Origin: Candidatus Termititenax persephonae
Lineage (GTDB): Bacteria; Margulisbacteria; Termititenacia; Termititenacales; Termititenacaceae
Length of the DNA: 64,000 nucleotides
NCBI GenBank assembly: GCA_003864475.1
Contig: BGZO01000003.1
Coordinates: forward strand, 1,789 to 65,788
Direction: 5' to 3'
The notes beneath the pieces are model-generated. The model did no database searches. It was given only the letters and a program-made list of their open reading frames with translations, and was not told the DNA's origin. Positions within the stretch are counted from its first letter, which is position 1. Every line of letters begins with the position of its first letter. Both the position numbers and the translations under genes were made by a program. Below are positions 12,805 through 39,975 of the stretch, one piece after another.

Positions 12805-12871
12805 TGACGTATAATACATTATATATTTTGCTTATTTTTATTATTTATGTATAATATACTGCGCATGTTAA

Positions 12872-13237: not shown

Positions 13238-13243
13238 GATTTT

Positions 13244-24121: not shown

Positions 24122-25358
24122 TTATTCTGACACAGGCGGCGGCGCGGCCGTGGCGGCGGTCAGACTGCTTGCTGCTTTGCGCCAGCGCGGTGTGGATGCG
24201 GATTTGGGTGTGGTGGAAAAAAACACCAGCCAGCCCAGTATAATCTGCTTGAAAAAAGATAATTTGTTAAAAAAAATATTGCGCCGCTGGCGTGCTTATC
24301 TGCTACGTTTTGCTTTTCGTACGACAAACCCGATTCTGCACTCGGAAAACAAACAAACTTTGCTGGATATTGAGCGGATTAATAATTCAGATTATGACTT
24401 GGTGCATCTGCACTGGGTTAATTACAATGCGCTGGCCATAGAGGACATGGCGAAAATTAAAAAGCCGCTGGTCTGGACGCTGCATGACCATTGGGTTTTT
24501 GCCGGAGCGGAACATTATGCCAATATCTGGGAGAACGATGAGAGATTTATGGTTGGCTATACGCGGGCTAATCAGCCGCCCACAACTAAGGGCTTAGATA
24601 TTTGCCGTTGGACTTGGGAACGCAAGAAAAAATCTTGGGCGAAGGTAAAAATAGATTTTATTGCGCCGAGTAATTATGAGCAGAATTTGTTTGCGCAAAG
24701 CGCCTTATTTAAGGGGGGGGATAATCCTAGTGCGGTGATTCCCAATATTGTGCCGGAAGATATTTTTAAGCCTTTGGCTAAGTTTGCCTTGCGGCAGAAA
24801 TATGGCATACCGCAGGATAAGAAAGTTATTGGTTTTGGCGCATTGGATATTTCCTGCGAGAAGTCTGTCAAGGGCGGTCATCTGCTCTTAGAGGCTTTGC
24901 GGAAGATTCCAGAGCCGCAGGATTTTCACTTAGTGATTTTCGGCAGGGTGGATGCTTCTTTTAGCCGCGCGGTGGCGATGCCGTTGTTTTCCGCAGGCTG
25001 GGTAGACAAGCAAAATGTTCTGGCAGAGTTGTACAATCTTTGCGATGTTTTTGTCTGTCCGTCCGTACTGGAGAACCTGCCCAATGTCTGCCTAGAGGCT
25101 TTGTTTTGCGGAGTGCCTGTCGCGGCTTTTGCGACGGGCGGTATCCCGGACATAGTGGAGCATCGGCGGACGGGTTATTTAGCGAGACCGTTTGCGGCGG
25201 AGGATTTGGCCCAGGGCATTGCTTACTGCTCGGCCCAGGCGCCAAGATTATCCGAAAATTCTTTGCTCAAAGCCGGACAAGATTTTAACAATCGAGCCGT
25301 ACTGGAAAAGCATATCTCATTTTATGAAAATGTTTTAAAATGCCGTCCAGGAGCGTGA
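24102..25358 (+). CDS. GT-B fold glycosyltransferase (GT4 family)
   Basis: KILLLNYSDTGGGAAVAAVRLLAAL...VFVCPSVLENLPNVCLEALFCGVPVAAFATGGIPDIVEH is the E-x7-E type region. TTG 24102 is preceded by AAGGAAG. The track start ATG 24042 and ATG 24069 are alternatives. Confidence 0.8.
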   Translation: MKILLLNYSDTGGGAAVAAVRLLAALRQRGVDADLGVVEKNTSQPSIICLKKDNLLKKILRRWRAYLLRFAFRTTNPILHSENKQTLLDIERINNSDYDLVHLHWVNYNALAIEDMAKIKKPLVWTLHDHWVFAGAEHYANIWENDERFMVGYTRANQPPTTKGLDICRWTWERKKKSWAKVKIDFIAPSNYEQNLFAQSALFKGGDNPSAVIPNIVPEDIFKPLAKFALRQKYGIPQDKKVIGFGALDISCEKSVKGGHLLLEALRKIPEPQDFHLVIFGRVDASFSRAVAMPLFSAGWVDKQNVLAELYNLCDVFVCPSVLENLPNVCLEALFCGVPVAAFATGGIPDIVEHRRTGYLARPFAAEDLAQGIAYCSAQAPRLSENSLLKAGQDFNNRAVLEKHISFYENVLKCRPGA

Positions 25359-25361
25359 AAC

Positions 25362-26237
25362 GTGAGTTGTCTGGTCAGTGTCGTCCTCGGTTCTTATAAC
25401 CGCCGTAAGTTTTTGCCCCGTTGCCTCGACAGTGTGCGCCGGGAGTTGGCGGATGTGCCGCACGAGATTATCGTGGTGGACGGCGGCAGCACGGACGGGT
25501 CGCTCAGCTGGCTGGTCAAGCAGAAGGACATCCTGACCATAGTCCAGCACAACCGCGGCTCTTGGCGCGGGCGGCCAGTCCGGCGACGTTCTTGGGGCTA
25601 TTTTATGAATCTGGGATTTAAAGCGGCGCAGGGCAAGTATATCTGTATGCTTAGCGATGATTGCCTGGTGGTCCCCGGCGCGGTCAAGAAAGGCCTGGCG
25701 CTTTTTGAGCGGAAGCGGCGGGCGCGGCAGAAAATCGGTGCGCTGGCTTTTTATTGGCGCGACTGGCCAGTGGAAAATTTTTACGCCGTCTATGCTTTTG
25801 CGGGCGGGGTCTTAAATGTCAACCACGGCCTGTATCTGCGCGCGGCTCTGCAGGAGATTGGTTTTTTGGACGAAGAGACCTATCGGTTTTATGCGGGCGA
25901 TATTGATGTTTGTCTTCAACTTGCCGCCGCGGGATACAAAATAATACCTGCGGAAAATTCTTATATCGAGCATTACGCGCACGCTAATTTCCGCGCCCGT
26001 TTTGCCAATAACAAGCAAAATCAAGAGCGGGACAAGCGGGCGTTAATCAAGAAATGGAGTTTTAAGTACGGCACCAATCCTGAAAATTATGCCCGCCAGA
26101 CTTGGCCCAAAGATTTTCACGATTCTACGCGGACGATTCGTAAATTTTATTTATGGCATTTTTTGAACGGCTGGGAATATTTGCTCTGGGCTTATAAATT
26201 CTGCCGCAAAACTTTTGCGAAAGGTTCAGTAGGATGA
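25362..26237 (+). CDS. Family 2 glycosyltransferase
   Basis: LVSVVLGSYNRRKFLPRCLDSVRRELADVPHEIIVVDGGSTDGS...MLSDDC. GTG start. Confidence 0.8.
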   Translation: MSCLVSVVLGSYNRRKFLPRCLDSVRRELADVPHEIIVVDGGSTDGSLSWLVKQKDILTIVQHNRGSWRGRPVRRRSWGYFMNLGFKAAQGKYICMLSDDCLVVPGAVKKGLALFERKRRARQKIGALAFYWRDWPVENFYAVYAFAGGVLNVNHGLYLRAALQEIGFLDEETYRFYAGDIDVCLQLAAAGYKIIPAENSYIEHYAHANFRARFANNKQNQERDKRALIKKWSFKYGTNPENYARQTWPKDFHDSTRTIRKFYLWHFLNGWEYLLWAYKFCRKTFAKGSVG

Positions 26238-27586
26238 AAAATCGCAAGTGGTTGTTGGTTTTATGGTGTCTGGCTCTTTTGGCGTTTTTTCGTCTGGAAA
26301 TTTTCATCTCGCCGCTCGGACAAGATGAGTCAGTGTATGCCTATATGAGTCAGCAGGTCGGGCAGGGTGCGGTTTTGTACCGCGACGTTACCGACAATAA
26401 ACCGCCGGTGCTTTTTTGGCTGGCCGCCGCGGTAACGCGCTTGCCGGGCGTGAATCAAATCAACATCTTGATTTTAGATACTTTAATTGCCGCCTTGAGC
26501 GTTTGGCTATTCTACTTGCTGGCGTGTAAATTTACTGCAAATACTTTTTGGCTGACTACGGCCTTTATTATTTTTACCAACGCGCATCGTCTTTCCCAGG
26601 GCGGGTTTTTGACCGAACATTACGTGGTATTTTTTGTTTTGCTGGCTTGGTGGCTGTGGCTGCGCGACAAGCCGCTACCAGGGACGGATATTTTGGCGGG
26701 CGCATGTTTGGCCTTGGCCTTTTTGTCCAAACAGACTGCCTTGGCGACTTGCGCGGGCTGGGGTCTGTATATACTCCTGTATCTGCGCCGTGATTTTAAT
26801 CTTTTTTACCGCGGTCTGCGGGTCTTAGGTGGATTTCTGTCCGTACTGGCTTTAAGTTTGTTGTATCTGTATGCGCAGGGTGCGCTGGCTTATTTCTGGC
26901 AGGACTGTGTGGTTCATTTAATGCAGTACCGTGTGCAACAGGGACGCAATCCTTGGGGCGATTTTCTGGCAGTTATTGTGGATAATCTGGCCTCCGTGGC
27001 CTTGCTTTGGTTTATGCTGGCGCTGGCCTTATGCCAGCGCGGGACACAGAACACAAAATATAGAACCCTTATGTTGATTTGTTTATTTTTAGAATTTCTG
27101 GCTTTTACTGCGGGTAAGACTTTTTACGGACATCAGATTTTGCCGCTGGCTCCGGCGCTCGGTTTGCTTAGCGCTTTGTCTCTGCCTGAAAAATTTTATC
27201 TCAGATACGAAAAAGTTTTGTTAGCGCTTTTAGCGGTGTCTCTGTTGCTACAAACCTACTATACTTGGCGGGCTTTCAGGCAATTTCCTGACTTATTAGA
27301 TGATTATCGTGCGGCCAACTATATCGCACAAAACACCGCGCCGGAGGATTTTCTTTACGCGGCTTATGGTGATGCGCGTATCGCTTTCTTGTCCCGCCGT
27401 CGGCATTTTTATAAACGCGCGTATCTGGCACATGCCTATTCACCAGCGGAACAAATTTTTATGCAGAAAGAATTTGACCGATTGCGGCCGCTGTATTTGC
27501 TTAACGGCTGGCCGGCTTATGCTAATCCCGCCGCTTACCGTTTGGAAAAAGAGATTGGGCGGTATAAAATCTACAAACGCCAATGA
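26234..27586 (+). CDS. GT-C fold membrane glycosyltransferase (ArnT/PMT_2, GT39/83-like)
   Basis: The first loop is SPLGQDESVYAYMSQQVGQGAVLYRDVTDNKPPVLFWLAA, followed by about 10 hydrophobic segments. It overlaps its neighbours by 4 nt on both sides. Confidence 0.65.
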   Translation: MKNRKWLLVLWCLALLAFFRLEIFISPLGQDESVYAYMSQQVGQGAVLYRDVTDNKPPVLFWLAAAVTRLPGVNQINILILDTLIAALSVWLFYLLACKFTANTFWLTTAFIIFTNAHRLSQGGFLTEHYVVFFVLLAWWLWLRDKPLPGTDILAGACLALAFLSKQTALATCAGWGLYILLYLRRDFNLFYRGLRVLGGFLSVLALSLLYLYAQGALAYFWQDCVVHLMQYRVQQGRNPWGDFLAVIVDNLASVALLWFMLALALCQRGTQNTKYRTLMLICLFLEFLAFTAGKTFYGHQILPLAPALGLLSALSLPEKFYLRYEKVLLALLAVSLLLQTYYTWRAFRQFPDLLDDYRAANYIAQNTAPEDFLYAAYGDARIAFLSRRRHFYKRAYLAHAYSPAEQIFMQKEFDRLRPLYLLNGWPAYANPAAYRLEKEIGRYKIYKRQ

Positions 27587-28755
27587 AAGTCTGGTCAATC
27601 TTTTACGGTAACCTCTCGCTCAATCAAGGGCCGACGACGCATTTTACGGAGTTGACCAAATGCCTGACCAACGCCGGAGTTGAGGTAACCGCTTATGCGC
27701 CCGCGCTTGGCCGATACAGCGGACAAAATCAAAACTTCCCGCTGAAATATACTTGGACACTCAAGCTACCATTTGTCCGGGTAGTGGTCTATGACTTTTT
27801 ATTGGCCTTAAGATTGTTATTTACTTTTCCGAAGCCCGATATTTTTTATGTGCGGGTCGCTTATTTTTCTTTATTTACGCCGCTGTTGGCCAAAATTCTG
27901 CGCCGCAAATTGGTTTTGGAGATTAACGGTTTTGTCGTTGACGATGTTTTGTCTAAGGGCTGGCCTGCTCCCCTGCGCTGGGTCTCCATAAGTTGCGAAA
28001 AGTTTCTGCACAAAATTGCTGACGCGGCGATTTGCGTGTCCGCGACTATTAGCGAGGCCGTACAGCAATCTTTTGGCATCCCCCGGCGTAAACTGGTCGC
28101 GCTGGAAAACGGCGTGAATATTGAGCATTTTCGTCCGCTGGACAAGGCCAAGTGCCGGGCGGAGCTGGGTTTTGACAGCCAGATTAATTATATCGGCTAT
28201 GTCGGCTGTTTTACAGGCTGGGACGGGATTGAGCATATTGTTCACGCTTTGCCCGGGATACAGAAAACTTTTCCGCAGACCAAGGTTTTATTGGTCGGCG
28301 ACGGGGAACAAAGGAAATTCGTGGAGAGTGAAGTGCGCAGACTCAATTTGGCAAAAGAAGTTATTTTTACGGGCTATGTGCAGTATGCGGACTTGCCAAA
28401 ATATCTAAATGTTTTTACGGTGGCGGTCGCGCCCTACGGCGGCAGCGAGTCTATCCAGACGCGGAATAAAAAAGGCGGTCTGTCCTCGCTGAAAAGCAAA
28501 GAATATATCAGTTGCGGCTTGCCTGTGGTGGTGGCGGATATTTCCGGCGTGGCCTATCTCGCTGGTTTGGCGGGCTATGTCATCCCGCAGGGCGATAGGC
28601 AAAGTTTGACAGAAAAGGTTAAAATACTGCTGAGTAGCAAAAGTTTGCGCGAAAAGTTTGCCCGGGCAGGGCGTGAATACGCGGTCAAGAATTGTTCTTG
28701 GCAGAATGTCGCGGATAAAACAAAAGAAATATTGGCAGGAGTTCTAAAAAAATGA
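27583..28755 (+). CDS. GT-B fold glycosyltransferase (GT4 family)
   Basis: GYVGCFTGWDGIEHIVHALPGIQKTFPQTKVLLVGDGEQ...FTGYVQYADLPKYL...EYISCGLPVVVADISG. Confidence 0.8.
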   Translation: MKVWSIFYGNLSLNQGPTTHFTELTKCLTNAGVEVTAYAPALGRYSGQNQNFPLKYTWTLKLPFVRVVVYDFLLALRLLFTFPKPDIFYVRVAYFSLFTPLLAKILRRKLVLEINGFVVDDVLSKGWPAPLRWVSISCEKFLHKIADAAICVSATISEAVQQSFGIPRRKLVALENGVNIEHFRPLDKAKCRAELGFDSQINYIGYVGCFTGWDGIEHIVHALPGIQKTFPQTKVLLVGDGEQRKFVESEVRRLNLAKEVIFTGYVQYADLPKYLNVFTVAVAPYGGSESIQTRNKKGGLSSLKSKEYISCGLPVVVADISGVAYLAGLAGYVIPQGDRQSLTEKVKILLSSKSLREKFARAGREYAVKNCSWQNVADKTKEILAGVLKK

Positions 28756-29882
28756 CGGCGGATTTGGCGAGGCAAAATTTTACTTTATCTTTAATTATTC
28801 CTTGTTACAATGAGGAGAGGACTATCGCCGCCTGTCTCGAAAAAACGTGCAGTGTCGCGCAGGGGCAAAATTTTGCTTTGGAATTGATTGTGGTCGATGA
28901 TGCTTCGACTGATAACAGCCTGCGGGAATTGGCAAAAGTCGCACAAAAATATCCTAGGATTCGTGTCTTAAAACATCCGGTCAACCGCGGCAAAGGCGCG
29001 GCCTTGCGTACAGGCTTGGTGCAAGCGGTGGGTGATTTTGTCGGTATCCAAGATGCGGATGACGAGTACAATCCGCGCGAATACTTGACCTTGCTTCAAC
29101 CCTTGCTGAATAACCAAGCCGATGTGGTTTTCGGTTCGCGCTATCTGTGTCAGGACTCGCGTTATGTCTTGTACTTTTGGCACACTTGGATGAATAAATT
29201 TCTGACTTGGGTTTCTAATATGTTTACCAATCTGGATCTGACCGACATGGAAACCTGCTATAAATTATTTCGCCGGGCGGTTATCCAAAAAATTGCGCCG
29301 CAGTTGAAAGAAGAACGTTTCGGCTTTGAGCCGGAGATTACTGCCCGTGTCGCGCAGCTTGGCTGCCGTGTTTATGAATGCGCAATTTCCTACAATCCGC
29401 GTTCCTACGAGGAAGGCAAGAAAATCAATTGGCGGGACGGCATCCGGGCTTTGTACTGCATCCTGCATTACAGTGCGCATACCGCGCCCTTGCCGATGCA
29501 GATTATCTTGTACTTTTTTATTGGCGGGGTCTCGTTATTTGTCAATGTGTTTTGTTTTTACTTGCTGGGGCGTTTTGCTTGGCCCTTGCCTCACGCCATC
29601 GCGGGGTCTTTTGCCGCGTCGGCTTTGGCTAATTATTTGTTGTGCATCCATATCTTATTTCAACATAAGGCGCGTTGGAATACGCTGGGCGAGATTGTTG
29701 TTTATATTTTGGCGGTGGCGGTCATGGGTGTCATCGATTACGGTATTACTGGTGGTTTGCTGGCCTTGTTGTGGTCTCCACTGCGGAGCAAGTTTTGGGC
29801 GGCGGCGGTCGGCTTTGTTGGCAACTTTGTTTTGCGGCGCTGGGTTATTTTTCCTGAAAAGAAGAGGCCGATTTTAGTTTGA
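28752..29882 (+). CDS. Polyprenyl-phosphate glycosyltransferase-like GT2 (Dpm1/PpgS-like) fused to a C-terminal GtrA-like 4-TM domain
   Basis: LSLIIPCYNEERTI...LIVVDDASTDNS...IQDADDEYNP...GSRY...EEGKKINWRDG. The last ~125 aa, ILYFFIGGVSLFVNVFCFYLL...GFVGNFVLRRWVIF, are GtrA-family-like. Confidence 0.7.
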   Translation: MTADLARQNFTLSLIIPCYNEERTIAACLEKTCSVAQGQNFALELIVVDDASTDNSLRELAKVAQKYPRIRVLKHPVNRGKGAALRTGLVQAVGDFVGIQDADDEYNPREYLTLLQPLLNNQADVVFGSRYLCQDSRYVLYFWHTWMNKFLTWVSNMFTNLDLTDMETCYKLFRRAVIQKIAPQLKEERFGFEPEITARVAQLGCRVYECAISYNPRSYEEGKKINWRDGIRALYCILHYSAHTAPLPMQIILYFFIGGVSLFVNVFCFYLLGRFAWPLPHAIAGSFAASALANYLLCIHILFQHKARWNTLGEIVVYILAVAVMGVIDYGITGGLLALLWSPLRSKFWAAAVGFVGNFVLRRWVIFPEKKRPILV

Positions 29883-31509
29883 GTACATAAAAAAACAGAT
29901 TATTGGTGCCGTTGCTGTTCCAGTTGTTCGGCTCTAGTTCAATAGAGGAAGTGCTTATTTTTTCATACACCACTTCGTATTGCGCATAAGTATTTGTCCA
30001 CGGCGGTACGCTTAGTTTTTTCTCATTCCAGAAATCTTGGCAATATTGAAATTTCTGTTCGTCCAGCGGGGCATAAGTATCCAGAAAAGCAATGGTTTGA
30101 AAATCTGCCGGACGGTTCGGCAGATAATTAACACGGTCGGCGTATTTGTATTTTTGGCGGATATTTTTGAGCAGCGGCGCGTTAACATTGTCGTATTCGC
30201 CAATCAGATAGGGCTGATAGTGTTCGATTATTTTGACAAGTTCTTTTTCGTTCAGCGGAGTTTGCCGTCCGCGCAGGAAGCTGGGAAAGAAGAACAGAAA
30301 TATACCTGTATAGGCGGACAGTAGATACGCCAAGGTTTTGGTTTTTAGTTCGGGCAGGCTTTGGGCGATAACGTAGATAAACAGCGGCAGATAAACCAAA
30401 GCATTGCGCGTGGGAGTCAGGGTTAATTTTTGAGTAAAAACTAAACCGAGATAAGTCAGCAAACTGAAAACGACAAATAACCCTTCCGGTGTTTTGTAAC
30501 ATTTACGCAAGCCGAGAACAAAACCAGCCGTAAACAGGCCGCCGAAAATCCAGTAAAAAAAATTATCTGCCGCGACTGGGCTTAAAGTGTGCGTCAAAAC
30601 TAAAAACCCGTTGCGGAGCAGAAACCAAAAAATATTTTTATCCGGCGTGAATAAAAACTCGCCGTGCAGTCCGCTATTGTAAATTGCCGCGCCGGCGGTC
30701 GGCCTGACGAGCAGGATATAACACAGCGCGGGCAGACCAAAGGCTAAGTTTAGCAAACCACTGTAAATAAGTTTTTTGGCTTCTGGATAAGAGAAACGTT
30801 TAAGCCAAAAATTGACTAAATAATACGCGGGCAGTAAAAAAAATAGTTGATAATGTGCATAAACAAATAAAGTTGTCAGCCCGGCGGAAGTCAGCCAATG
30901 CTGGCGAAAAAAATTTTCCTGCCGGCTGTGCTGCAACAGCAGCAATAAGCCCGCCGCCGCCAGACAGCCGATAGCGTAGCTGTAGGATTGTTTGGCGAAA
31001 ATAATGTTTTCTAGAGACAAGGCGCCAATGAGAACGCCGAGCAGTAAGGCGGTGTGGTTGTTTTTTTTTAAAATAAAGCACAGCAATAAAATGGTCAGCA
31101 GGCTAAAGACACAAGACGGCAAACGTCCCATAAAAAGCAGAGTGTTGTAGTTTTGCTGGTCGTTGATTAGAAACGGTGTGATTAAAAATTGTAGCGGCGC
31201 ATTGCTGTTGGTCAGCGGGACAATCAGAAAACGGGCAAGATAAAAGGTTGCGTCAAAAATAAAGCGGGTCTGCGGATTTTCGTAAATATTTTTGATTAAG
31301 GTTTTTTGTCGGGAATGATACGCCGCGTTGAGCGGGTTGTCGATGATGTCCAGCAATTCTTGGCGATAGTCCGGGTGTTTGGCGCGCAGAATATCGATAA
31401 TAGTTATGGCATCGTCTAAGTGGACAAAATGCGTCCCCAAATCTGCCAAGCGCACGGCACAAGCCAGAAGGAGAATTAAAAGCAAACAGACTTTTTTTAA
31501 TTTACCCAT
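29845..31509 (-). CDS. Large polytopic membrane protein with C-terminal soluble domain (paralogue of 32474-34147); putative lipid-carrier-dependent glycosyltransferase, family not recognised
   Basis: A 554-aa protein with a signal/TM N-terminus, then GTHFVHLDD and a ~90-aa loop, about 11 hydrophobic segments and a C-terminal ~140-aa domain ending NGTNNLFFYVLKL. It is the last gene of a three-gene minus-strand operon with a GtrB-like GT2. Confidence 0.55.
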   Translation of the reverse strand: MGKLKKVCLLLILLLACAVRLADLGTHFVHLDDAITIIDILRAKHPDYRQELLDIIDNPLNAAYHSRQKTLIKNIYENPQTRFIFDATFYLARFLIVPLTNSNAPLQFLITPFLINDQQNYNTLLFMGRLPSCVFSLLTILLLCFILKKNNHTALLLGVLIGALSLENIIFAKQSYSYAIGCLAAAGLLLLLQHSRQENFFRQHWLTSAGLTTLFVYAHYQLFFLLPAYYLVNFWLKRFSYPEAKKLIYSGLLNLAFGLPALCYILLVRPTAGAAIYNSGLHGEFLFTPDKNIFWFLLRNGFLVLTHTLSPVAADNFFYWIFGGLFTAGFVLGLRKCYKTPEGLFVVFSLLTYLGLVFTQKLTLTPTRNALVYLPLFIYVIAQSLPELKTKTLAYLLSAYTGIFLFFFPSFLRGRQTPLNEKELVKIIEHYQPYLIGEYDNVNAPLLKNIRQKYKYADRVNYLPNRPADFQTIAFLDTYAPLDEQKFQYCQDFWNEKKLSVPPWTNTYAQYEVVYEKISTSSIELEPNNWNSNGTNNLFFYVLKLKSASSFQEK

Positions 31510-31517
31510 GGGCAGAA

Positions 31518-32474
31518 TTATTTATTTAATAATTTTTCGATAATATATCTTGGCCGCTGTTTGGTTTCCAGATAAATCTTGCCAATATATTCGCCAATGA
31601 CCCCGATAGAAAAAATAATCAAGCCGCCGATAGCCCAAAGCGAAACTGCTAAACTAGCCCAGCCGACTATGGTATGTCCAGAGAAATAACGGTAGATAGA
31701 CCAGACAATCATGGCCAAGCTGACCAAAAGCAACAATATGCCGAGTAAGGTAATCAGACGGATAGGTTTAATAGATAGAGACGTGATGCCTTCGAGCGCA
31801 AAATTCAGCATTTTGTAGAACGGATATTTGCTTGTGCCTGCCAGGCGTTTGGCACGCGTGTAATACTCTACGCCGGTTTTATACCCCAGCAGGGGAATAA
31901 TCCCGCGCAAGAAAAGATTTACTTCGCCATACTCTGCCAGCGCGTCTAAGGCTCGTCTGCCCATTAGACGAAAGTCCGCGTGATTATAAATGGTCTGGAC
32001 CCCCAGCAGGCTCATAAGTTTGTAAAAAGCCTGCGCGGTTATTTTTTTGAAGAGACCGTCTGTTTGGCGGTTATTGCGCACGCCGTAAACTATTTCACAG
32101 CCAGCTAGGAATTGCCGAACCATGCCGTCGATAACAGTGATGTCATCCTGCATATCGGCATCAATAGAAATAACCGCGTCGCAGGAGTCTTTGACGGTCA
32201 ATAGCCCGCAGAGCAAAGCGTTTTGGTGGCCGCGGTTTTTACTTAGTTTGATTCCGCTAAAAATTTGCGGACAACGGCGATGCTGTTCGGCAATCAATTC
32301 CCAGGTTTTGTCTTGTGAGCCGTCGTCGACAAAAACAACCTTAGATTTTTTCGAGACTAGCCGCGCGGACTGCAGAGCGCGGATTTTCTGCGCCAATTTT
32401 ACTGCGGTTTGCGGAAAAATTTCCTCTTCATTGTAGCAAGGAACGACAAGAGCTAGAGTAAGCATATTTGGCAT
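31518..32474 (-). CDS. Polyprenyl-phosphate glycosyltransferase (GtrB/ArnC-like GT2 with two C-terminal TM helices)
   Basis: LALVVPCYNEEEIF...VVFVDDGSQDKTWELI...KLSKNRGHQNALLCGL...ISIDADMQDD, plus two C-terminal hydrophobic helices. Confidence 0.8.
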   Translation of the reverse strand: MPNMLTLALVVPCYNEEEIFPQTAVKLAQKIRALQSARLVSKKSKVVFVDDGSQDKTWELIAEQHRRCPQIFSGIKLSKNRGHQNALLCGLLTVKDSCDAVISIDADMQDDITVIDGMVRQFLAGCEIVYGVRNNRQTDGLFKKITAQAFYKLMSLLGVQTIYNHADFRLMGRRALDALAEYGEVNLFLRGIIPLLGYKTGVEYYTRAKRLAGTSKYPFYKMLNFALEGITSLSIKPIRLITLLGILLLLVSLAMIVWSIYRYFSGHTIVGWASLAVSLWAIGGLIIFSIGVIGEYIGKIYLETKQRPRYIIEKLLNK

Positions 32475-34147
32475 TATAACTGAAGAATGTAGAAAAATAA
32501 ATTATTCGTACCGTTGGTGTTCCAATAATTCGGTTCGTGTTCGATATTGGTAGTGCTGATTTTCTCGTAAATTACTTTATATTGATTATACGGTGTTTCC
32601 CAGCGCTGATTGGTTCCAGCGTTCCAAATTTGCTGGGAGATATTGAAATGCGTCTCATTGAGTTCTTCCCACGTGCTGTAAAATAAGACTGTTTTATAGT
32701 TACGCGTTGGCTGATTTAGAAAAATATTATGGTCGCCGTCAACGTAATTGTATTGCCGGCGCACCTGCGGGAACATCGCCAGATGCAGAGAGTGTTCATA
32801 GCCCGCAATTAAATTCGGCTGATAGGTCTCAATAATCTTCAGCAATTCTTTTTCGTTAATCGGGTCGCGCCTGTCCTGAACAAATCCGGGGAAGAAGTAT
32901 AAAAAAATTCCCGTATAGACGAGCAGCAACAGATAGATAATGCTGTCCTTTAATTTTAATTCGGAGATGCTTTGGGCGATGGGATAAATGAAAAGCGGCA
33001 GGTAAACCAAGGATTGGCGGGTCGGGGTCATGGCCAGTTGCTGAATAGCAATCAACGCCAAATAAATGCCAAAGCAAAGTGTTAAGTAGAGAAATTCCGG
33101 CTGTCTGCGGATTTTGCCAAGCCCGCGCCAAAATGCCGCAAAGAACAATAGGCCAAACAGCCAGTAAAGAAGTTGGTCCGCGGTAACTGGGCTGAGGGTG
33201 TGCGTGATTACCAAAAAACTATTTCTGATAAAAAACCAAATGGGATAAAACAAAATATTTTGGCCGCTAGGCGTAAATAAAAATTCGCCGAATTTGCCTA
33301 TAACATAACGCCCAGACTCGACTTGGGCGCCGTGAATGAACAGCAGGAACAATAAAGTGGGCAGGCAGAGCAGAAAACTGACCGCACAGCTTTGCTTCAC
33401 TTTGAGGCTTTCCGCCGGATTATGGCGTTTTAGCCAAAAATTGGCCAAGTAATAGGCAGGCAAAAGAAACGCCACTTGATAGTGGGTGTAAGCGAGGACG
33501 GCGGCTAACACGCCGGAAGGCAGCCAGTATTTTTGGAAAAATTTATCTTCCTGACTGCGCTGAAACAAAAGTAGCAGGGTAGCCGAAGCCAGACAGCCGA
33601 AAGCGTAAGCGGGCGCAAATTTGGCTTGGATAATGCTCTCCAGCGACAGTGCGCAAATTAACATTCCGCCTAATGCGCCCGCGGTATTTGTTTTGCGGCG
33701 CAGAGTCAAAAAAATCAAACAGACGGTCAGCACCCCAAAAATAAAAGACGGCAGACGGCCCATCAATAAATTTAAGCGATAGCTATAGTTTGGCGAAGTA
33801 ATCAAGGTAAACAAGGTAGGCTGGATAGGGGCAATGTTAGAATCCAAAGGCAGAATCATAAATCTGGACAGGTACACCCCGGCCTCGAAAATAAATCTGG
33901 AGCGAGGATTGTCATATATTTTACGGATAAGTTTTTTTTGCCTGTCGTCATGATGCGGTCTGGCGGGGTCGTAAAGAGAGGTTAATAATTCTTGGCGAAA
34001 GCGCGGCTCCTGAGTACGGAAAACATCCGCGAACATAAAAACATCGTCATAGTGGGCGAAATGTGTGCTTAAATCGACACCCCGCGCGAAAAAAGCCAAA
34101 GCAAATATGAGCAGAAAACCGAGATGGCGCAGATATTTGGGCGGCAT
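32474..34147 (-). CDS. Large polytopic membrane protein with C-terminal soluble domain (paralogue of 29845-31509)
   Basis: A 557-aa protein with STHFAHYDD and the same loop, TM and C-terminal architecture, ending NGTNNLFFYILQL. Its stop shares nucleotide 32474 with the start of the GtrB-like gene. Confidence 0.55.
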   Translation of the reverse strand: MPPKYLRHLGFLLIFALAFFARGVDLSTHFAHYDDVFMFADVFRTQEPRFRQELLTSLYDPARPHHDDRQKKLIRKIYDNPRSRFIFEAGVYLSRFMILPLDSNIAPIQPTLFTLITSPNYSYRLNLLMGRLPSFIFGVLTVCLIFLTLRRKTNTAGALGGMLICALSLESIIQAKFAPAYAFGCLASATLLLLFQRSQEDKFFQKYWLPSGVLAAVLAYTHYQVAFLLPAYYLANFWLKRHNPAESLKVKQSCAVSFLLCLPTLLFLLFIHGAQVESGRYVIGKFGEFLFTPSGQNILFYPIWFFIRNSFLVITHTLSPVTADQLLYWLFGLLFFAAFWRGLGKIRRQPEFLYLTLCFGIYLALIAIQQLAMTPTRQSLVYLPLFIYPIAQSISELKLKDSIIYLLLLVYTGIFLYFFPGFVQDRRDPINEKELLKIIETYQPNLIAGYEHSLHLAMFPQVRRQYNYVDGDHNIFLNQPTRNYKTVLFYSTWEELNETHFNISQQIWNAGTNQRWETPYNQYKVIYEKISTTNIEHEPNYWNTNGTNNLFFYILQL

Positions 34148-34232
34148 AGACGGTAATTAAAGCATAGAAATATAAATAAAGCAGTAAACCTAGTCTAGGA
34201 AAAATCCTAAGATAGAGATAAAATAAACGCCA

Positions 34233-34595
34233 ATGCCTAAATTAATATCATTGCCGACTTACCGGGACGGCCGCGGCAGTTTGACTGTGGTGGAAAAAAT
34301 CCTGCCTTTTGAGATTAAGAGGATTTACTATATTTATAATTGCGCCGATTTGCCGCGCGGCGGGCATCGACATAAAAAAGCGATACAAGCCTTGATTTGC
34401 CTGAAGGGTTCTTGCGCGGTCGACTGGAATAACGGCCAGGCCAAAGGCACGGTTGACTTAAACCAGCCTGACCAAGTATTGATTGTGTTGCCGGAGGATT
34501 ACCATGTCATGCGTGATTTTACACCCGAGGCCGTGTTACTGGTAATTTCGTCGGAATATTTTGCCGCCGAGGATTATATAGACGAGGATTATTGA
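34233..34595 (+). CDS. FdtA/QdtA (WxcM C-terminal)-like dTDP-4-keto-6-deoxyhexose 3,4-ketoisomerase
   Basis: YRDGRGSLTVVEKILPFEIKRIYYIYNCADLPRGGHRHKKAIQALICLKGSC...EYFAAEDYI closely follows the FdtA pattern (RGxL..E...PF.IKR.YYI....RG.HAHKK..Q.L.CL.GSC). Confidence 0.8.
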   Translation: MPKLISLPTYRDGRGSLTVVEKILPFEIKRIYYIYNCADLPRGGHRHKKAIQALICLKGSCAVDWNNGQAKGTVDLNQPDQVLIVLPEDYHVMRDFTPEAVLLVISSEYFAAEDYIDEDY

Positions 34596-35680
34596 TGCTG
34601 GAATACGAAAATCTGGCGCGGCTTAACGCTCCCTTTCTAGCGCAATACCAAGACAAGTTTGCCGAGATTGCCCAAAAAGGCTGGTATATTTTGGGCAACG
34701 AAGTTTCCTTGTTTGAGCGGGAGTTTGCCGATTATTGTGGTGCGCGATACTGCGTCGGGGTCGCCAACGGTTTGGACGCGCTGACCTTATCTTTGCGGGC
34801 GTGCGCTTTCCCCCCCCAGTCAGAAATTCTTGTTCCCGCCAATACTTATATTGCGACAATTTTGGCGGTCTTGCAGGCCGGGCATATTCCCGTGCTGGTC
34901 GAGCCGGACATCCGTACCTATAATCTTGATGACAAACTTGTCGAAGCTAAAATAACCGCTAAGACTAAAGCCATTATGCCTGTGCATCTCTACGGACGGC
35001 TGTGCGCCATGCCCGAAATTTTATCTCTGGCGCAGAAATACCAGCTGAAAATAATCGAGGATGCCGCGCAGGCGCACGGCGCGGCCTTGAACGGGCGCAG
35101 GGCCGGGGCGTGGGGAGATTTGACAGCTTTTAGTTTTTATCCGACCAAAAATTTAGGGGCATTGGGCGACGGCGGCGCGGTAACCACAGACAACGCAGAG
35201 TATGCGGAGAGATTAAAAGCCCTGCGCAATTACGGCTCATCCCAAAAATATTATAACGCAATGCTTGGCGTGAATTCCCGTCTGGACGAAGTGCAGGCGG
35301 GTTTTCTGCGGATTAAATTAAAATCTCTAGACAAAATCAACGCGCATAAAAATAAATTGGCCGCTATTTATCAAGCGGAACTGCCTGGCCAATTCATCAA
35401 GCCTTGGGTCGCGCCGGAGTATTATCATGTCTACCACATTTACAATATCCGCCACCCTGAGCGCGACCGCCTGAAAAAATATTTGGCACAGCAGGGCATC
35501 AAGACGGAGATTCATTATCCCGTCGCGCCCAATAAACAACAAGCCCTGCGCGGTATCTTGGCTCAGCTAGCTACGCCGTTGGCGGAAGAAATCCACCGCA
35601 CGACGCTGACTTTACCGCTGTCCTATGCCCACACGGAGACGGATATTTTGCACGTCTGTAAAATCTTAAAAAAGTTCTAG
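34592..35680 (+). CDS. DegT-family PLP aminotransferase (FdtB/QdtB-like, dTDP-3-amino-3,6-dideoxyhexose forming)
   Basis: GWYILGNEVSLFEREFADYCGARYCVGVANGLDALTLSL...FSFYPTKNLGALGDGGAV. There is a 4-nt overlap with the isomerase gene. Confidence 0.8.
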   Translation: MMLEYENLARLNAPFLAQYQDKFAEIAQKGWYILGNEVSLFEREFADYCGARYCVGVANGLDALTLSLRACAFPPQSEILVPANTYIATILAVLQAGHIPVLVEPDIRTYNLDDKLVEAKITAKTKAIMPVHLYGRLCAMPEILSLAQKYQLKIIEDAAQAHGAALNGRRAGAWGDLTAFSFYPTKNLGALGDGGAVTTDNAEYAERLKALRNYGSSQKYYNAMLGVNSRLDEVQAGFLRIKLKSLDKINAHKNKLAAIYQAELPGQFIKPWVAPEYYHVYHIYNIRHPERDRLKKYLAQQGIKTEIHYPVAPNKQQALRGILAQLATPLAEEIHRTTLTLPLSYAHTETDILHVCKILKKF

Positions 35681-35717
35681 ATGGTTTTGCCGCGCGATTT
35701 GTAGTAAGATTTTGGCA

Positions 35718-36656
35718 ATGACTGGACAAAAAATATCTTTTGTTATTCCTTGTTATAACTCGGAGCATACGTTGGAGGCGGTAGTGGCCGATATTTTTAC
35801 GGCGATGCGCGGACACGGCTATGCCTTTGAGATTATTTTGGTTAATGATGCTTCCCAAGATAATGTTTGGCACAAGATTGAGGCCTTGGCCGCCCAGCAG
35901 GACAATATTATCGGTGTTTGTCTGGCGAAAAATTTTGGCGAAAATGCCGCGCTGATGGCGGGTTATGCGCAGGTCAGCGGCGATATTGTGATTTCGCTGG
36001 ACGATGACGGGCAAAATCCGCCGTCCGAGGCGTTCACTTTGCTTAATAAATTGAACGAAGGCTACGACGTAGTGTTTTCCGCTTATGCCAAGAAACAGCA
36101 TGGTATTTTCCGCAATATCGGCAGCCGGATTAATGATTTCATGGCGGAGATTTTGATAGGCAAGCCGCGTAATATTCAGGTCTACAGCTATAATGCCGCG
36201 CGCCGTTACATCATTGACGAGATTGTGAAATATAGCGGGCCGTATCCTTATATTACGGGCTTGTTTTTCCGCACGACCCGCAATGTGGCGAATGTAGTGG
36301 TCGAACATCGCAAACGCGCTCATGGCAAATCCGGCTATTCATTTGGTAAATTGGTTGGTCTCTGGCTGAACGGTTTTACAGCCTTTTCGGTCAAGCCTCT
36401 GCGCTTGGCTTCGCTCTTGGGCTTGCTTTTTTCTGCTTTGGGCGTTTTTTATATGGTTTTTTTGCTGTGGGAACGCCTGCACAATCCGCAAATGGTCATG
36501 GGCTACACTTCACTGATGGCGGTAATTATTTTTGTCGGCGGTGCGCTGATGGCAATGCTGGGACTTATCGGCGAGTATATCGGGCGGATTTATATTTCAA
36601 TCAATAACGCGCCGCAGTATGTTGTCAAGGCCATAAGCCGCCAGACAAATCAATAA
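35718..36656 (+). CDS. Polyprenyl-phosphate glycosyltransferase (ArnC/GtrB-like GT2 with two C-terminal TM helices)
   Basis: ISFVIPCYNSEHTL...IILVNDASQDN...LAKNFGENAALMAGY...ISLDDDGQNPP, then two C-terminal hydrophobic helices. Confidence 0.8.
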   Translation: MTGQKISFVIPCYNSEHTLEAVVADIFTAMRGHGYAFEIILVNDASQDNVWHKIEALAAQQDNIIGVCLAKNFGENAALMAGYAQVSGDIVISLDDDGQNPPSEAFTLLNKLNEGYDVVFSAYAKKQHGIFRNIGSRINDFMAEILIGKPRNIQVYSYNAARRYIIDEIVKYSGPYPYITGLFFRTTRNVANVVVEHRKRAHGKSGYSFGKLVGLWLNGFTAFSVKPLRLASLLGLLFSALGVFYMVFLLWERLHNPQMVMGYTSLMAVIIFVGGALMAMLGLIGEYIGRIYISINNAPQYVVKAISRQTNQ

Positions 36657-37793
36657 CGGTTCGATAGGAAAGCGGTAGACCAGCGACCCGGCAAAAACTA
36701 AGTGAATCGCGTTGAGCTGTACGATATAGAGCAGAGGATAGGTGAGCAGGACATAGTTTTTAGCTTGGCGAAAAATCCACAGCGTGTAAGCGGCGAGCAA
36801 GACCAGCGGCACGAAGCTACAGAAAATCACGGTGCTGGTCAGTGGATTGGTATATTGCGGGGCGCGCGGATACGGTCGCCAGAAGATATACATTTTTTTG
36901 ACTGCCAAGATTAAAACTTGCCGGGGATTTTCGCGGACAAATTTTTTCACTTCATCTTTGTACCAAGTCTGGCGTTTGTCCGGCGGCAGAGAGTTCATTA
37001 TCTTGTAGATTTCTTCCAGCGGCGGGGCCTCTTCGCCCCAAATGCCGCCGCCGGTCTTATTCAGAGGATTCAACCCGAGATAAAGGTTGTGGTCGGCATT
37101 GCCGCCCGTAAATGACCATTCGCCGCCGCGGCAATAATTATAAGTTCCCCAGCTCCCGATAAAACAAAGAACCAGCAGGCCAACCATGACGATTTTTGGC
37201 CAAGGAATTTTACGGAACAGAAAGAACGCGACTGCCAGCACAACATAAGGCAGAAACACCGTGCGCACCCAAGAGGTAAACCCAAACACCAGTCCCAGCA
37301 GGACGGCGGACGGCCAATCGCGTTTTTGGTCAAAAATTATGGAACAATAGATTGACAAAACCACCCAAAAAACAAACCAATGCTCCATGGACAACTGCGT
37401 CGCATAAAAAATCAGCCACGGATAAAATGCGCCAAGACCAGCCGCCCAGCGTCCTGCGGTCTCGGAGTTAAAAATCGCTGTTGTGATTTTGTACAAAAAA
37501 TAACAAAGCAAAAGCGCCACAACAGACTGGACTAATATTGACGGATAAATATAGCTGGTTTGACCGAAAATTTTAACTAAGGCCGCCAAGAATAAAATAA
37601 ACCCTGGCGGTTTGGCCATGCCGTAGCCTAGTCCTGCGGCCAAAGCCTCGGCGGTCGGAGCATACTGGCTGTGATAATCCGGTAATTGCTGATGCTGCCA
37701 ATACAGGCCTGCCAGGGCGCGCAAGAAAAAACCGCCGAGTAAAATAAACAGCCAATAATACTTATGATTTACCAATTGTTTGAAAAAATTCAT
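36597..37793 (-). CDS. GT-C fold membrane glycosyltransferase (PMT_2/ArnT-like)
   Basis: Multi-TM protein with the early loop ...GYGMAKPPGFILFLAAL. The internal start MNFFKQ (37793) is preferred. The 3' end overlaps the convergent GT2 gene by 60 nt. Confidence 0.55.
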   Translation of the reverse strand: MNFFKQLVNHKYYWLFILLGGFFLRALAGLYWQHQQLPDYHSQYAPTAEALAAGLGYGMAKPPGFILFLAALVKIFGQTSYIYPSILVQSVVALLLCYFLYKITTAIFNSETAGRWAAGLGAFYPWLIFYATQLSMEHWFVFWVVLSIYCSIIFDQKRDWPSAVLLGLVFGFTSWVRTVFLPYVVLAVAFFLFRKIPWPKIVMVGLLVLCFIGSWGTYNYCRGGEWSFTGGNADHNLYLGLNPLNKTGGGIWGEEAPPLEEIYKIMNSLPPDKRQTWYKDEVKKFVRENPRQVLILAVKKMYIFWRPYPRAPQYTNPLTSTVIFCSFVPLVLLAAYTLWIFRQAKNYVLLTYPLLYIVQLNAIHLVFAGSLVYRFPIEPLLICLAAYGLDNILRRVID

Positions 37794-37821
37794 GACCTTA
37801 AAACTATAGCATAAAACTAAC

Positions 37822-39120
37822 TTATTGGGGCAGAGCTGCGTCCTGTTCTGTAAAACCAAAATATTGCGCGGTATTTATAATCGCGCAGGCGGTTAATAAC
37901 GCAAAAAATGGTGCGCGAAAACGACTGTCGCCCATAATCGCACTTGTTGCCGCCAGATAAGCGCTCAAAAGAATAAGCGCAAGCTGTGCCAAGTGGAAAG
38001 TTTTCTGGTAATTAGCGATTAAGCTAAAAATAAAAATCAAGTAAACAAAAGCTAAATAAACCGCGTACAAGCCGGAAACAACATAGGCTAAAGTACTCGG
38101 CAAGATACTAAAAAGATAAGTCTGCGACGGGCCAAACAGCAGGACGAACAAACCACTGAAACTGCACCAAAGATAAGCGGGAAAGTTTGCCCGGATAAAG
38201 TTCCAGCCGTATTTTTTCTGTAAGACACTTAATTGCGCGGCGTTCAGGTTTGCGGCCTGCGGATATTGCCGGGTAAACAACTGGTCGTGGTAAGTCTGCG
38301 CCGCTTTTTCGTCTAGGCTACTTTGTGCCATCGTGATAATCGGCGCGTAATATTTTTGCATATTGTAATTGGCAATGGTCGAGAAAATAAAAACTCCCGA
38401 GTGTGTGTAATTACGGTATGACCAACCGCCGAACATGACGACAAAGCAAATTAAAAATAACAGCGGGCCGAACAAGGAAATCTTTCTGAAGCTGAAAAAT
38501 AAAAATAATAGAACAATAACCAACAGATTGAAGTACATTAAAATCGGGCGTGTCCAAAGCGCATAATTAAGCGCCAGACTAAAAAGCAGAAAGTCGCTGG
38601 GCCGCTGGCCTTGCGTGCAGAAGCGGATTAGAAAATAAAAAGCCAGAATCAAGCAAAATTCAAACAAAGTTTCGGGAGCGATATTCCAAGAGTGAATATA
38701 AGAGGTTAGATTGGGCAGCAAGGCCGCTCCGCCCAGTGCGGCAAGGCTAGGCGTTACGCGCAGCAGGATTAACGCGCGGTACAGCAAATACAATCCCCAC
38801 GCCGCCAATAAAATTTGTCCCAGCACAACGGCGGTATTATTTTGACCAAGCGCATAAATCGCCGCCAAGAATAACGGATAGCCGGGCGTGCGGTTGTAAT
38901 CCGGCGTAGCGCCGTCGATGCTGAAAAAAGCGTGCAACCGGAGGTTTTGTGCGGTTTGCACGTAATCAGCCGTGTCATGACTGATAATCGGTTGCCCGTG
39001 ATTTAGCGTAAAAAACAAAAGTACCGAGACGCAACAATAGGCCGCGCAAATATAATAAATCTTATTTTTATTGAGAAATTTGAGCATAAATTTATTTACT
39101 GCCAACGAAATTAAATTCAC
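37822..39120 (-). CDS. GT-C fold membrane glycosyltransferase (PMT_2/ArnT-like)
   Basis: A 432-aa multi-TM protein with the first loop HDTADYVQTAQNL...YNRTPGYPLFLAAIYAL. The start is GTG 39120 or the internal ATG 39087. Confidence 0.55.
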   Translation of the reverse strand: MNLISLAVNKFMLKFLNKNKIYYICAAYCCVSVLLFFTLNHGQPIISHDTADYVQTAQNLRLHAFFSIDGATPDYNRTPGYPLFLAAIYALGQNNTAVVLGQILLAAWGLYLLYRALILLRVTPSLAALGGAALLPNLTSYIHSWNIAPETLFEFCLILAFYFLIRFCTQGQRPSDFLLFSLALNYALWTRPILMYFNLLVIVLLFLFFSFRKISLFGPLLFLICFVVMFGGWSYRNYTHSGVFIFSTIANYNMQKYYAPIITMAQSSLDEKAAQTYHDQLFTRQYPQAANLNAAQLSVLQKKYGWNFIRANFPAYLWCSFSGLFVLLFGPSQTYLFSILPSTLAYVVSGLYAVYLAFVYLIFIFSLIANYQKTFHLAQLALILLSAYLAATSAIMGDSRFRAPFFALLTACAIINTAQYFGFTEQDAALPQ

Positions 39121-39234: not shown

Positions 39235-39975
39235 ATGTGTGTTATAATTTTTTACTTTAATGGGGGGAATATTTTGAAGCTCAGTGTCATCATACCGATT
39301 TACAATGAATACAATAATATTGACGCAGTTATTCAGGCTATCAAGGCAGTGGCTTTGCCGGAGCAGGTTGACGCGTTGGAATTGATTTTGGTGGACGATG
39401 GGTCGCATGATGGCACGGCACAAAAATTGGCAAGCTACAAAAATGATAAAATGATAATCGTCCATTCCTCGCGCTTTAATTTTGGCAAAGGCATGGCGAC
39501 ACGTATCGGCTTGACTTATGTAACTGGCGACATAGTTTTGATTCAGGATGCGGATTTGGAATACGACCCCAATGATTATCCTGTTCTGCTCAAGCCGATT
39601 ATTGAGGATAATGCCGCGATAGTTTACGGGTCGCGGTTTCTCAAAAAATCTCGGCCCCGCGGTATGGCTTTTCAGAATTGGCTGGCCAATCAATTGTTAA
39701 AAATTGCCGCCAATATTTTGTATGGGGCAAGGTTGACAGACGAAGCCACCGCCTACAAGATGTTTAAGACGGAAGCGATTAAGGCGCTCAATCTCAAAGC
39801 CAAGCGTTTTGAACTTTGCCCGGAACTGACGGCCAAGGCTTTGAAAAAAGGCTACAAAATCGTGGAAGTGCCTATTAACTACAAAGGACGCACGGTGGAA
39901 GAGGGCAAAAAGATAAAATGGCATGACGGTTTTGCGGCGATTTGGACCTTGTGCAAGTACCGATTTGTCGATTAA
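39235..39975 (+). CDS. Dpm1/PpgS-like GT2 (soluble; paralogue of the catalytic domain of 28752-29882)
   Basis: [16 protein letters not shown]...[12 protein letters not shown]...[13 protein letters not shown]...GSRF...[11 protein letters not shown]. The true start may be TTG 39274. Confidence 0.75.

Follow-up and report, generated by a model that had tools for sequence, protein, structure and literature searches.

A three-gene FdtA-FdtB-GT2 cassette in Candidatus Termititenax persephonae and a glutamate-marked class of ArnC-like glycosyltransferases that may use non-acylated amino sugars

In a 64,000-nucleotide stretch of the Candidatus Termititenax persephonae genome (positions 1789-65788 of BGZO01000003.1, contig C3 of genome G000; hereafter the window), three consecutive genes on the plus strand encode an FdtA-type ketoisomerase, an FdtB-type aminotransferase and an ArnC-like membrane glycosyltransferase of family GT2. 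We find that this GT2 carries a glutamate in a donor-contacting loop, a feature of ArnC-like GT2s encoded beside FdtA and FdtB in other genomes, and that no N-acyltransferase accompanies the three genes. They have the form of an operon (same strand, a 4-nt overlap and a gap of 31-37 nt), and we consider it likely that they feed a route in which a 3-amino-3,6-dideoxyhexose is delivered through a lipid carrier. That the sugar enters this route with its amine free is a more tentative proposal, in which our confidence is somewhat less than even. The source is a metagenome-assembled genome (MAG) of a member of the Margulisbacteria from the termite gut, 1.83 Mb in 201 contigs with an estimated completeness of 89.9%.

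The first gene (34233-34595, plus strand) encodes a 120-aa dTDP-4-keto-6-deoxyglucose 3,4-ketoisomerase of the FdtA/QdtA type. It matches PF05523 (E = 1.7e-30; 105.9 bits against a cut-off of 23), and its nearest solved structure is FdtA 2pa7 (E = 9.6e-24). The catalytic histidine pair is kept (PRGGHRHKK in the window protein, PRGFHAHKK in FdtA), with His45 and His47 of the GHRH segment (residues 44-47) aligned to the catalytic His49 and His51 of 2pa7. The protein is a cupin fold alone with no fused acetyltransferase domain, and it is the only FdtA copy in the genome. Its scores against FdtA (86.7 bits) and QdtA (78.3 bits) lie too close together to separate a galacto- from a gluco-configured product. 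The overlapping second gene (34592-35680, plus strand; 362 aa) encodes a DegT-family pyridoxal phosphate (PLP) aminotransferase of the FdtB/QdtB/WlaRG type, with a dTDP-3-keto-6-deoxyhexose as the predicted substrate (PF01041, E = 4.8e-102, 342 bits). Its best solved relatives are 7n63, WlaRG 5u1z and QdtB 3frk (E = 1e-108 to 1e-103), and it scores 350-366 bits against these 3-aminotransferases compared with 81-133 bits against ArnB, WecE and PseC-type enzymes. The PLP lysine, residue 186 in a YPTK motif, is invariant in the alignment and is not the histidine of the dehydratases. These results bear out the original prediction, made from the letters of the window, which had named both enzymes and their overlap. 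It had also proposed a search for rmlA and rmlB, and both are present: RmlA is encoded on C10 and RmlB on C1 and again on C36, and a dTDP-sugar precursor should therefore be available.

FdtA and FdtB have their nearest relatives (55-58% identity) at loci L092, L094, L101-L103 and L182, several of which come from Margulisiibacteriota. There the pair is linked to a soluble, seemingly GT8-like protein (about 320 aa; motifs FCTLFDS...DADLYFF) that has no Pfam match. No acyltransferase lies near FdtA/FdtB in these six loci. A lone FdtA-FdtB pair at L106 (7634-9104) directly follows the gene for PorV, of type IX secretion, and is followed by housekeeping genes, with neither a transferase nor an acyltransferase nearby.

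The third gene of the cassette (35712-36656, plus strand) encodes a 314-aa polyprenyl-phosphate GT2 made of a GT-A domain and two transmembrane (TM) helices. Translation starts at TTG 35712 or ATG 35718; the 37-nt gap to fdtB originally reported holds from the ATG, and from the TTG the gap is 31 nt. The database gene call, which begins at 35772, would drop the conserved VIPCYN nucleotide-binding strand. The protein matches PF00535, carries the DxD-type motif DDD (residues 97-99) and C-terminal TM helices at residues 230-248 and 261-279, and aligns over its full length to the ArnC and GtrB structures. Among solved structures it is closest to ArnC (E = 5e-53), followed by GtrB (2e-39) and DPMS (2e-14). 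Against the NCBIfam ArnC model NF007986 it scores 198 bits, under the 529-bit cut-off, and against the PgfS model 158 bits. In trees of 77-83 homologues it falls beside ArnC of E. coli, at 98% support, and is separate from the GtrB/PgfS-like sequences, which include a neighbouring GT2 of the window (31518-32474). The predicted ArnC/GtrB-like membrane GT2 is confirmed by this placement, on the ArnC side and not with GtrB, PgfS or Dpm1. A firm clustering with glucose- or mannose-specific GtrB/Dpm1 enzymes, which the original prediction had named as the outcome that would speak against it, was not found.

The residue that sets this GT2 apart is Glu77 (codon GAA, 35940-35942, plus strand), which lies in the donor loop K-N-F-G-E and corresponds to Gln80 of ArnC. 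The orthologue in the sister species, Candidatus Termititenax aidoneus (G001), has CAG (Gln) here. Glutamate occupies this position in all six ArnC-like GT2s encoded adjacent to FdtA/FdtB (five members of one clade and the window protein) and in none of 68 other aligned sequences, which have Gln, Lys, Arg, His or Ala (Fisher p = 5e-9). When the 120 best homologues of the GT2 at locus L096 are read, 112 of the 113 with a readable motif have Glu, and the single Gln member sits beside a UDP-glucose dehydrogenase and epimerases with no aminotransferase nearby. For the window GT2, the 120 closest homologues in a collection of 5.8 billion proteins comprise 119 with Gln and a single one with Glu, the window protein itself. 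Gln is also present at the equivalent of position 77 in the orthologues from two genomes that lack FdtA, those of the sister species (72% identical) and of a family-level relative (locus L002 in G007; 63% identical). At Asn16 and Asn102, in the two remaining donor loops, the window GT2 also agrees with the Fdt-linked clade. The donor-contacting loops are those named in the ArnC structure paper (bioRxiv 10.1101/2025.01.29.634835). A tally of all residues diagnostic of the Fdt-linked clade was rejected as a marker, with the window GT2 at 4 and tied with two unrelated sequences; only Glu77 is exclusive.

The window GT2 does not belong to the Glu-form clade by descent. It groups with the Gln-form proteins of G001 and L002 (96-100% support); the Glu-form clade in the tree consists of L095, L096, L097, L108 and L153. 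It nevertheless has the features of a Glu-form GT2, namely Glu77, fdtB directly upstream and no acyltransferase. We read the shared loop residues as a convergent adaptation of this GT2 to the donor class that the Fdt-linked clade would use.

All eight sampled Glu-form loci besides the window adjoin an FdtB-like aminotransferase. FdtA, FdtB and the GT2 are adjacent in L096 and L097 (both from other Margulisiibacteriota genomes), L108, L153 and L191, and more loosely associated in L095, L190 and L192, in each case with a GT2 of a different subclade from that of the window. For instance, L108 is a compact unit of FdtA, FdtB, GT2, a methyltransferase and a 515-aa membrane protein set among housekeeping genes, and L153 has the order FdtB-GT2-FdtA followed by two EamA genes resembling an ArnE/F pair. 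The clade is large: the 120 database proteins most similar to the L096 GT2 share 60-68% identity with it, and Sulfurimonas gotlandica, Sulfuricurvum, Desulfonatronum and Chlorobiaceae are among their sources. Three gene contexts inspected in this clade are as follows: DegT-GT2-GtrA-methyltransferase-membrane proteins, FdtA-DegT-GT2, and FdtA-2,3-dehydratase-ketoreductase-DegT-GT2-GtrA. The acyltransferase-free FdtA-FdtB-GT2 design recurs in many other bacteria, and its Glu signature and missing acyltransferase set it apart from the known systems. Two metagenome loci first taken for FdtB-ArnC-like pairs, L161 and L169, were removed from the Glu-form set; their GT2s are short, DPM1/AglJ-like and without TM helices.

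Four of these loci have a character of their own. L190 (Sulfurimonas gotlandica GD1), L192 (Desulfonatronum), L095 (G011:C17) and L108 combine a Glu-form GT2 and a 3-aminotransferase with a GtrA or EamA flippase, often a class-I methyltransferase, once a B12-radical-SAM enzyme and, in two of the four, an NDP-hexose 2,3-dehydratase with a ketoreductase. They amount to antibiotic-style deoxyamino-sugar pathways that seem to be wired to a lipid carrier. The class-I methyltransferases at L108, L190 and L192 are homologous to one another (28-39% identity), and L095 has one too, which hints at N-methylation of the sugar in the lineages that bear them. This genome contains no orthologue of the methyltransferases that follow Glu-form GT2s elsewhere.

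We next asked whether an N-acyltransferase accompanies these genes. Comparing every ORF (open reading frame) of at least 110 aa in the window against Pfam, we found no Hexapep, GNAT or Formyl_trans_N match, in agreement with the original prediction of an acyltransferase-free window. In the genome as a whole, Hexapep is matched by LpxA, CysE and two further proteins, one GlmU-like and one NTP-transferase-like. Formyltransferase models pick up Fmt, PurN, PurU and a 223-aa protein in a pseudaminic-acid-type cluster on C25. Using 23 acyltransferases that adjoin FdtA/FdtB in other genomes as queries, we retrieved nothing beyond LpxA, CysE and a tandem pair of GNATs on C6 that is set among the housekeeping genes proA, holB and PSP1. 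A genome-wide search of the kind the original prediction had suggested therefore yields no convincing sugar N-acyltransferase in this 89.9%-complete MAG. No relative of E. coli ArnD turned up in a phmmer search of the genome, and ArnA matched Fmt, PurN, epimerases and the formyltransferase-like protein at C25:16968-17639 (E = 9e-11), which is unlinked to the locus. Two candidates for the missing steps were rejected. The C25 formyltransferase-like protein lies inside a PseB-PseC-...-PseH-PseI cluster and has the Fmt-like 1zgh as its best solved relative, and the polysaccharide deacetylase on C28 (the sole PF01522 protein) has no phmmer similarity to ArnD and an unrelated context. A regular expression for hexapeptide repeats of the left-handed beta-helix (LbH) type flagged far too many ORFs and was replaced by phmmer seeds and Pfam.

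The comparative pattern agrees with what is seen in the window. An acyltransferase (LbH, GNAT or formyltransferase) is present in 0 of 9 Glu-form loci, window included. Of the 27 Gln-form loci that have an aminotransferase close by, 15 have a GNAT, compared with 0 of 9 Glu-form loci (Fisher p = 0.0046), and the usual Gln-form arrangement is DegT-GNAT-GT2-EamA-EamA-large membrane protein. In an FdtB tree of 84 loci, the window FdtB belongs to a clade of 13 loci (100% support) with L108 as sister. No acyltransferase lies within 5 kb in 12 of these 13 loci, and in the thirteenth an LbH gene is 4.6 kb off, in a separate operon on the other strand. When only loci with full context are counted, an acyltransferase is found in 1 of 6 inside this clade versus 21 of 24 outside it (p = 0.002).

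The history of the locus can be followed through its relatives, of which we compared the sister species G001 in the same genus and the family-level L002 in G007; the next relative after Candidatus Termititenax aidoneus is a termite-gut Margulisiibacteriota MAG. All eight genomes compared from its genus, family or order lack FdtA. The glycan island of the sister species is collinear with the window except for two differences, the position of the GT2 and the abutment of two GT-C genes. Its GT2 orthologue sits between the orthologues of 26234-27586 and 27583-28755, and its orthologues of the GT-C genes at 32474-34147 and 36597-37859 abut each other. Since these flanking genes are contiguous there, fdtA-fdtB-GT2 reads as a 2.5-kb unit inserted in the opposite orientation, and on this gene order we take the trio to be a recently inserted cassette forming one operon. 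An AT-rich spacer of 85 nt (34148-34232), between fdtA and the divergent GT-C gene (32474-34147, minus strand), forms the left edge of the cassette and presumably holds its promoter. In L002 the GT2 orthologue lies between WecB and Wzt. The Gmd-Wzm-WecB-Wzt cluster of that relative (L002/L189, G007:C23) is syntenic with G000:C25:8081-12066 (67-92% identity); the C25 cluster has no GT2 between WecB and Wzt, and the GT2 is instead found relocated to the fdtA-fdtB cassette.

Downstream of the cassette, and convergent with it, are two genes for GT-C enzymes. The first, GT-C 'a' (36597-37793, minus strand), encodes a PMT_2/ArnT-like protein of about 398 aa from an internal ATG, its likely start, in an ORF open to 37859, and overlaps the GT2 gene tail to tail by 60 nt (36597-36656). 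The protein matches PF13231 (E = 1.2e-7; 32.5 bits against a cut-off of 26.1), has about seven TM helices and carries PDYH after TM1, with the acidic residue in the first outer loop. Its orthologue in the FdtA-less sister species is 74% identical, and a homologue lies within a Sulfurimonas operon of DegT and a Glu-form GT2 (E = 7e-21). On these similarities we regard 'a' as a candidate periplasmic transferase. The second, GT-C 'b' (37822-39120, minus strand), is a 432-aa ORF whose database call starts at 38961. It has no Pfam match of its own and is a paralogue of 'a' (E = 3e-9), and its homologues carry PF13231 or PF02366. We followed the original suggestion to model the GT-C enzymes, and the AlphaFold2 model of 'b' is confident (pLDDT, predicted local distance difference test, 91.8), with ArnT 5f15 as its top fold match in the PDB (E = 2.9e-5) and only GT-C enzymes among the further significant matches. 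Asp49 and Tyr53 of 'b' lie in the first outer loop, and both are invariant in 24 homologues. The identity and orientation of the two GT-C genes are as predicted, but their convergence on the GT2 is a product of the cassette insertion.

In L096, L097, L108 and L190 the GT2 is followed by large membrane proteins (DUF2079 in L097) that show no recognisable mutual relation, and the acceptor is probably not conserved across Glu-form loci. L097 adjoins a GT9 heptosyltransferase gene, which points loosely to lipopolysaccharide (LPS) as the acceptor at that locus. Beyond GT-C 'b' in the window, and divergent from it, is a gene for a short DPM1/AglJ-like GT2 without C-terminal TM helices (39235-39975; 246 aa). 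Similar short GT2s lie directly beside FdtB in L161 and L169, and the window protein may supply the two GT-C enzymes with a lipid-linked sugar as an alternative synthase.

The proposal that follows is built on what we observed, namely the identities of the genes, their catalytic residues, the form of the operon, the insertion of the cassette, the fold of the GT-C enzyme and the pattern seen on comparing loci. RmlA and RmlB, encoded elsewhere in the genome, would make dTDP-4-keto-6-deoxyglucose, FdtA would shift the keto group to C3, and FdtB would aminate the product to a dTDP-3-amino-3,6-dideoxyhexose, either 3-amino-3,6-dideoxygalactose (Fuc3N) or 3-amino-3,6-dideoxyglucose (Qui3N). The GT2 would load this sugar, non-acylated, onto undecaprenyl phosphate at the inner membrane face. 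A flippase would turn the lipid-linked sugar to the periplasmic side, where one of the adjacent ArnT-like GT-C enzymes would attach it to an envelope glycan or LPS. That such a decoration might alter surface charge and protect against antimicrobial peptides, as the original prediction had proposed, would be a more speculative step.

The original prediction had compared this logic with the Arn pathway of E. coli and Salmonella. The two share a DegT aminotransferase, an ArnC-type undecaprenyl-phosphate GT2, an ArnT-like GT-C enzyme and periplasmic transfer of an amino sugar. However, the predicted donor here is a dTDP-6-deoxyhexose with its amine at C3 rather than UDP-4-amino-4-deoxy-L-arabinose (UDP-Ara4N), the cassette has no ArnA-type formyltransferase, ArnD deformylase or ArnE/F pair, and the GT2 scores far under the ArnC cut-off and has Glu in place of Gln in the NxGQ loop. 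The Arn-like reading is plausible and in part borne out, by the gene identities, the ArnC-side GT2, the lack of a convincing N-acyltransferase and the recurrence of acyltransferase-free FdtA-FdtB-GT2 modules. The ArnA and ArnD partners and an equivalog-level score are lacking, and this is therefore not an Arn system. A Gtr system (GtrA/GtrB/GtrC), such as the neighbouring module at 28752-34147, likewise uses a lipid-linked monosaccharide, a flippase and a GT-C enzyme, but the window GT2 groups with ArnC, the cassette lacks GtrA and the predicted donor is an amino sugar. Our literature search found no report of a module that joins an FdtA-type isomerase to an ArnC-like GT2.

Several points weigh against a direct route through a non-acylated sugar, and some of them are the basis of other explanations considered below. 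There is no cassette flippase, with no EamA or GtrA ORF within 34148-39120; the GT2 at 28752-29882 has a fused GtrA domain, and one ArnE-like gene is far off at C2:60701-61102. The fdtB gene contains an in-frame C8 tract (34810-34817) at which slippage would switch the amino-sugar branch off, and the aminotransferase may thus be switchable. The Gln-to-Glu change may report recognition of dTDP rather than UDP, instead of the amine, because Asn77 of ArnC, three residues upstream of Gln80, hydrogen-bonds the nucleotide according to the structure paper (bioRxiv 10.1101/2025.01.29.634835). Weakly against a pure dTDP reading of the Glu is L144, where a GtrB-like GT2 beside FdtA-FdtB, with an acetyltransferase-like gene 4 kb off, has Ala at the loop position.

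The route may be correct and the sugar nevertheless N-acylated or N-formylated first by an unlinked or unrecognised enzyme, which would leave the decoration neutral. We think this unlikely. To our knowledge, the other characterised amino-sugar carrier pathways load the N-acyl form. ArnC itself takes the formylated sugar only, as stated in its structure paper (bioRxiv 10.1101/2025.01.29.634835). About 10% of the genome is missing, and an acyltransferase could have been missed there. The genome also encodes about ten GNATs, a formyltransferase-like protein and a PseH-like GNAT on C25, and island ORFs without a family (4134-5159, 23189-24121 and 12391-12804), and the two C6 GNATs weakly resemble FdtB-linked GNATs (E = 2e-11 and 6e-9). 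The C25 candidates, however, belong to a complete PseB/PseC/PseI-type cluster, the C6 GNATs sit among housekeeping genes, and acyltransferases are absent from the Glu-form loci and from nearly all of the window FdtB clade but almost always adjacent elsewhere.

The nearest precedent for the sugar, and for lipid-carrier delivery of its N-acetylated form, is region 3 of the Xanthomonas campestris wxc cluster, termed a 'modification and transport' region (PMC13133917). There the aminotransferase gene wxcK and wxcN, encoding a small membrane protein, are both required for side branches of N-acetylated Fuc3N (Fuc3NAc) (PMC4878081), and they lie alongside a GT2 gene, wxcL, and wxcM for a fused acetyltransferase-isomerase (PMC4878081, PMC13133917). 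As in the window, an isomerase and an aminotransferase for a 3-amino-3,6-dideoxyhexose are linked to a GT2 and membrane proteins; however, the LbH acetyltransferase domain of WxcM leads to an N-acetylated sugar, whereas the window has a bare 120-aa cupin and no linked acetyltransferase. WxcL is reportedly GtrB-like and WxcN GtrA-like. In Francisella FlmF2/NaxD/FlmK, Bordetella LgmA/B/C and mycobacterial PpgS/Rv3779, a polyprenyl-phosphate GT2 and a GT-C enzyme place a cationic hexosamine on an envelope acceptor, and in each of them the sugar is loaded in its N-acetyl form and loses the acetyl group once on the carrier. The cassette differs in that we found neither an acetyltransferase nor a linked deacetylase, the C28 protein being part of an unrelated cluster.

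A second explanation is that the adjacency is incidental. The GT2 would keep the donor of its orthologues, UDP-N-acetylhexosamine (UDP-HexNAc) or similar, and serve the GT-C genes as in the sister species; FdtA and FdtB would have come in as a pair and would feed one of the many cytoplasmic GT2 or GT4 enzymes of the island. The principal argument against a functional link lies here. Orthologues of the GT2, with identities ordinary for the island, are found in two relatives without FdtA/FdtB, and the lineage therefore worked earlier without these enzymes, probably on a different donor, UDP-HexNAc. In addition, the nearest FdtA/FdtB relatives are linked to the soluble GT8-like protein and not to an ArnC-like GT2, and the island encodes more than 15 cytoplasmic glycosyltransferases. 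Nevertheless, the GT2 has left the position it holds in the sister species and now stands directly behind fdtB, bringing the three genes together. Glu77, Asn16 and Asn102 are unique in its subfamily, all three match the Fdt-linked clade, and no homologue of the GT8-like protein exists in this genome. We judge an incidental adjacency improbable. Lastly, an assembly or binning artefact, either a chimeric strain join at the cassette junctions or a consensus error behind the Gln-to-Glu change, is conceivable in a MAG of 201 contigs with a strain-rich, hypervariable island but very improbable, given that intact ORFs flank the cassette inside a contig of 69.8 kb, that the G+C content across the region (0.45-0.51) shows no break in composition, and that CAG to GAA requires two base changes.

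In a Pfam scan of its ORFs, positions 1-40000 of the window stand out as one large glycan island. Genes for GT2 and GT4 enzymes are numerous there, accompanied by methyltransferase genes, two genes for DegT aminotransferases, four for GT2s of the polyprenyl-phosphate type and six for GT-C enzymes that are PMT_2-like. Apart from the C8 tract in fdtB, the island has homopolymer tracts of C10 (2039-2048), G22 (3271-3292), G7 (18206-18212) and G8 (24713-24720). The cassette probably contributes to strain-specific surface variation, located as it is in a hypervariable, slippage-prone island of an ectosymbiont. A second amino-sugar unit (12391-16067) contains a 137-aa ORF, the second DegT gene (13244-14368) and an overlapping PMT_2 GT-C gene (14322-16067); an ATPase gene of the AAA_14/DUF4143 type, together with a decayed copy of such a gene, breaks it up. 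The 137-aa ORF (12391-12804) was considered as a cupin and rejected, with no family or PDB match. The pseudaminic-acid-type cluster at G000:C25:13650-24276 encodes PseB-like, PseC-like, 223-aa formyltransferase-like, PseH-like GNAT and NeuB/PseI-like synthase proteins, and a matching cytidylyltransferase-like gene is found at the start of the window (869-1561).

The pathways known to us that place cationic amino sugars on the envelope, namely those for Ara4N, galactosamine (GalN) and glucosamine (GlcN), all use an N-acylated lipid intermediate that is unmasked by a deacylase. These pathways are major determinants of resistance to polymyxin and host peptides. We raise the possibility, about which we remain doubtful, that a large uncharacterised class of ArnC-like enzymes, marked by Glu in the NxG(Q/E) loop, takes non-acylated dTDP-3-amino-deoxyhexoses directly and has had a second origin in the window. 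Members of the Glu-form class occur in Margulisiibacteriota, Sulfurimonas, Desulfonatronum, Chlorobiaceae and others, and at some loci their sugars may be N-methylated or 2-deoxygenated. If the proposal is right, Glu-form enzymes would skip the detour of acylation followed by deacylation, and the window would record a second rise of the class, through replacement of Gln by Glu in a GT2 from a different subfamily when it was joined to fdtA-fdtB. Direct loading of a free or methylated 3-amino-6-deoxyhexose would then be a different biochemical solution and bring a new class of sugar into periplasmic glycan decoration. The Gln/Glu position would also offer a simple candidate marker of which donor an ArnC/GtrB-type enzyme uses, in a group whose preferences among sugars are still poorly understood.

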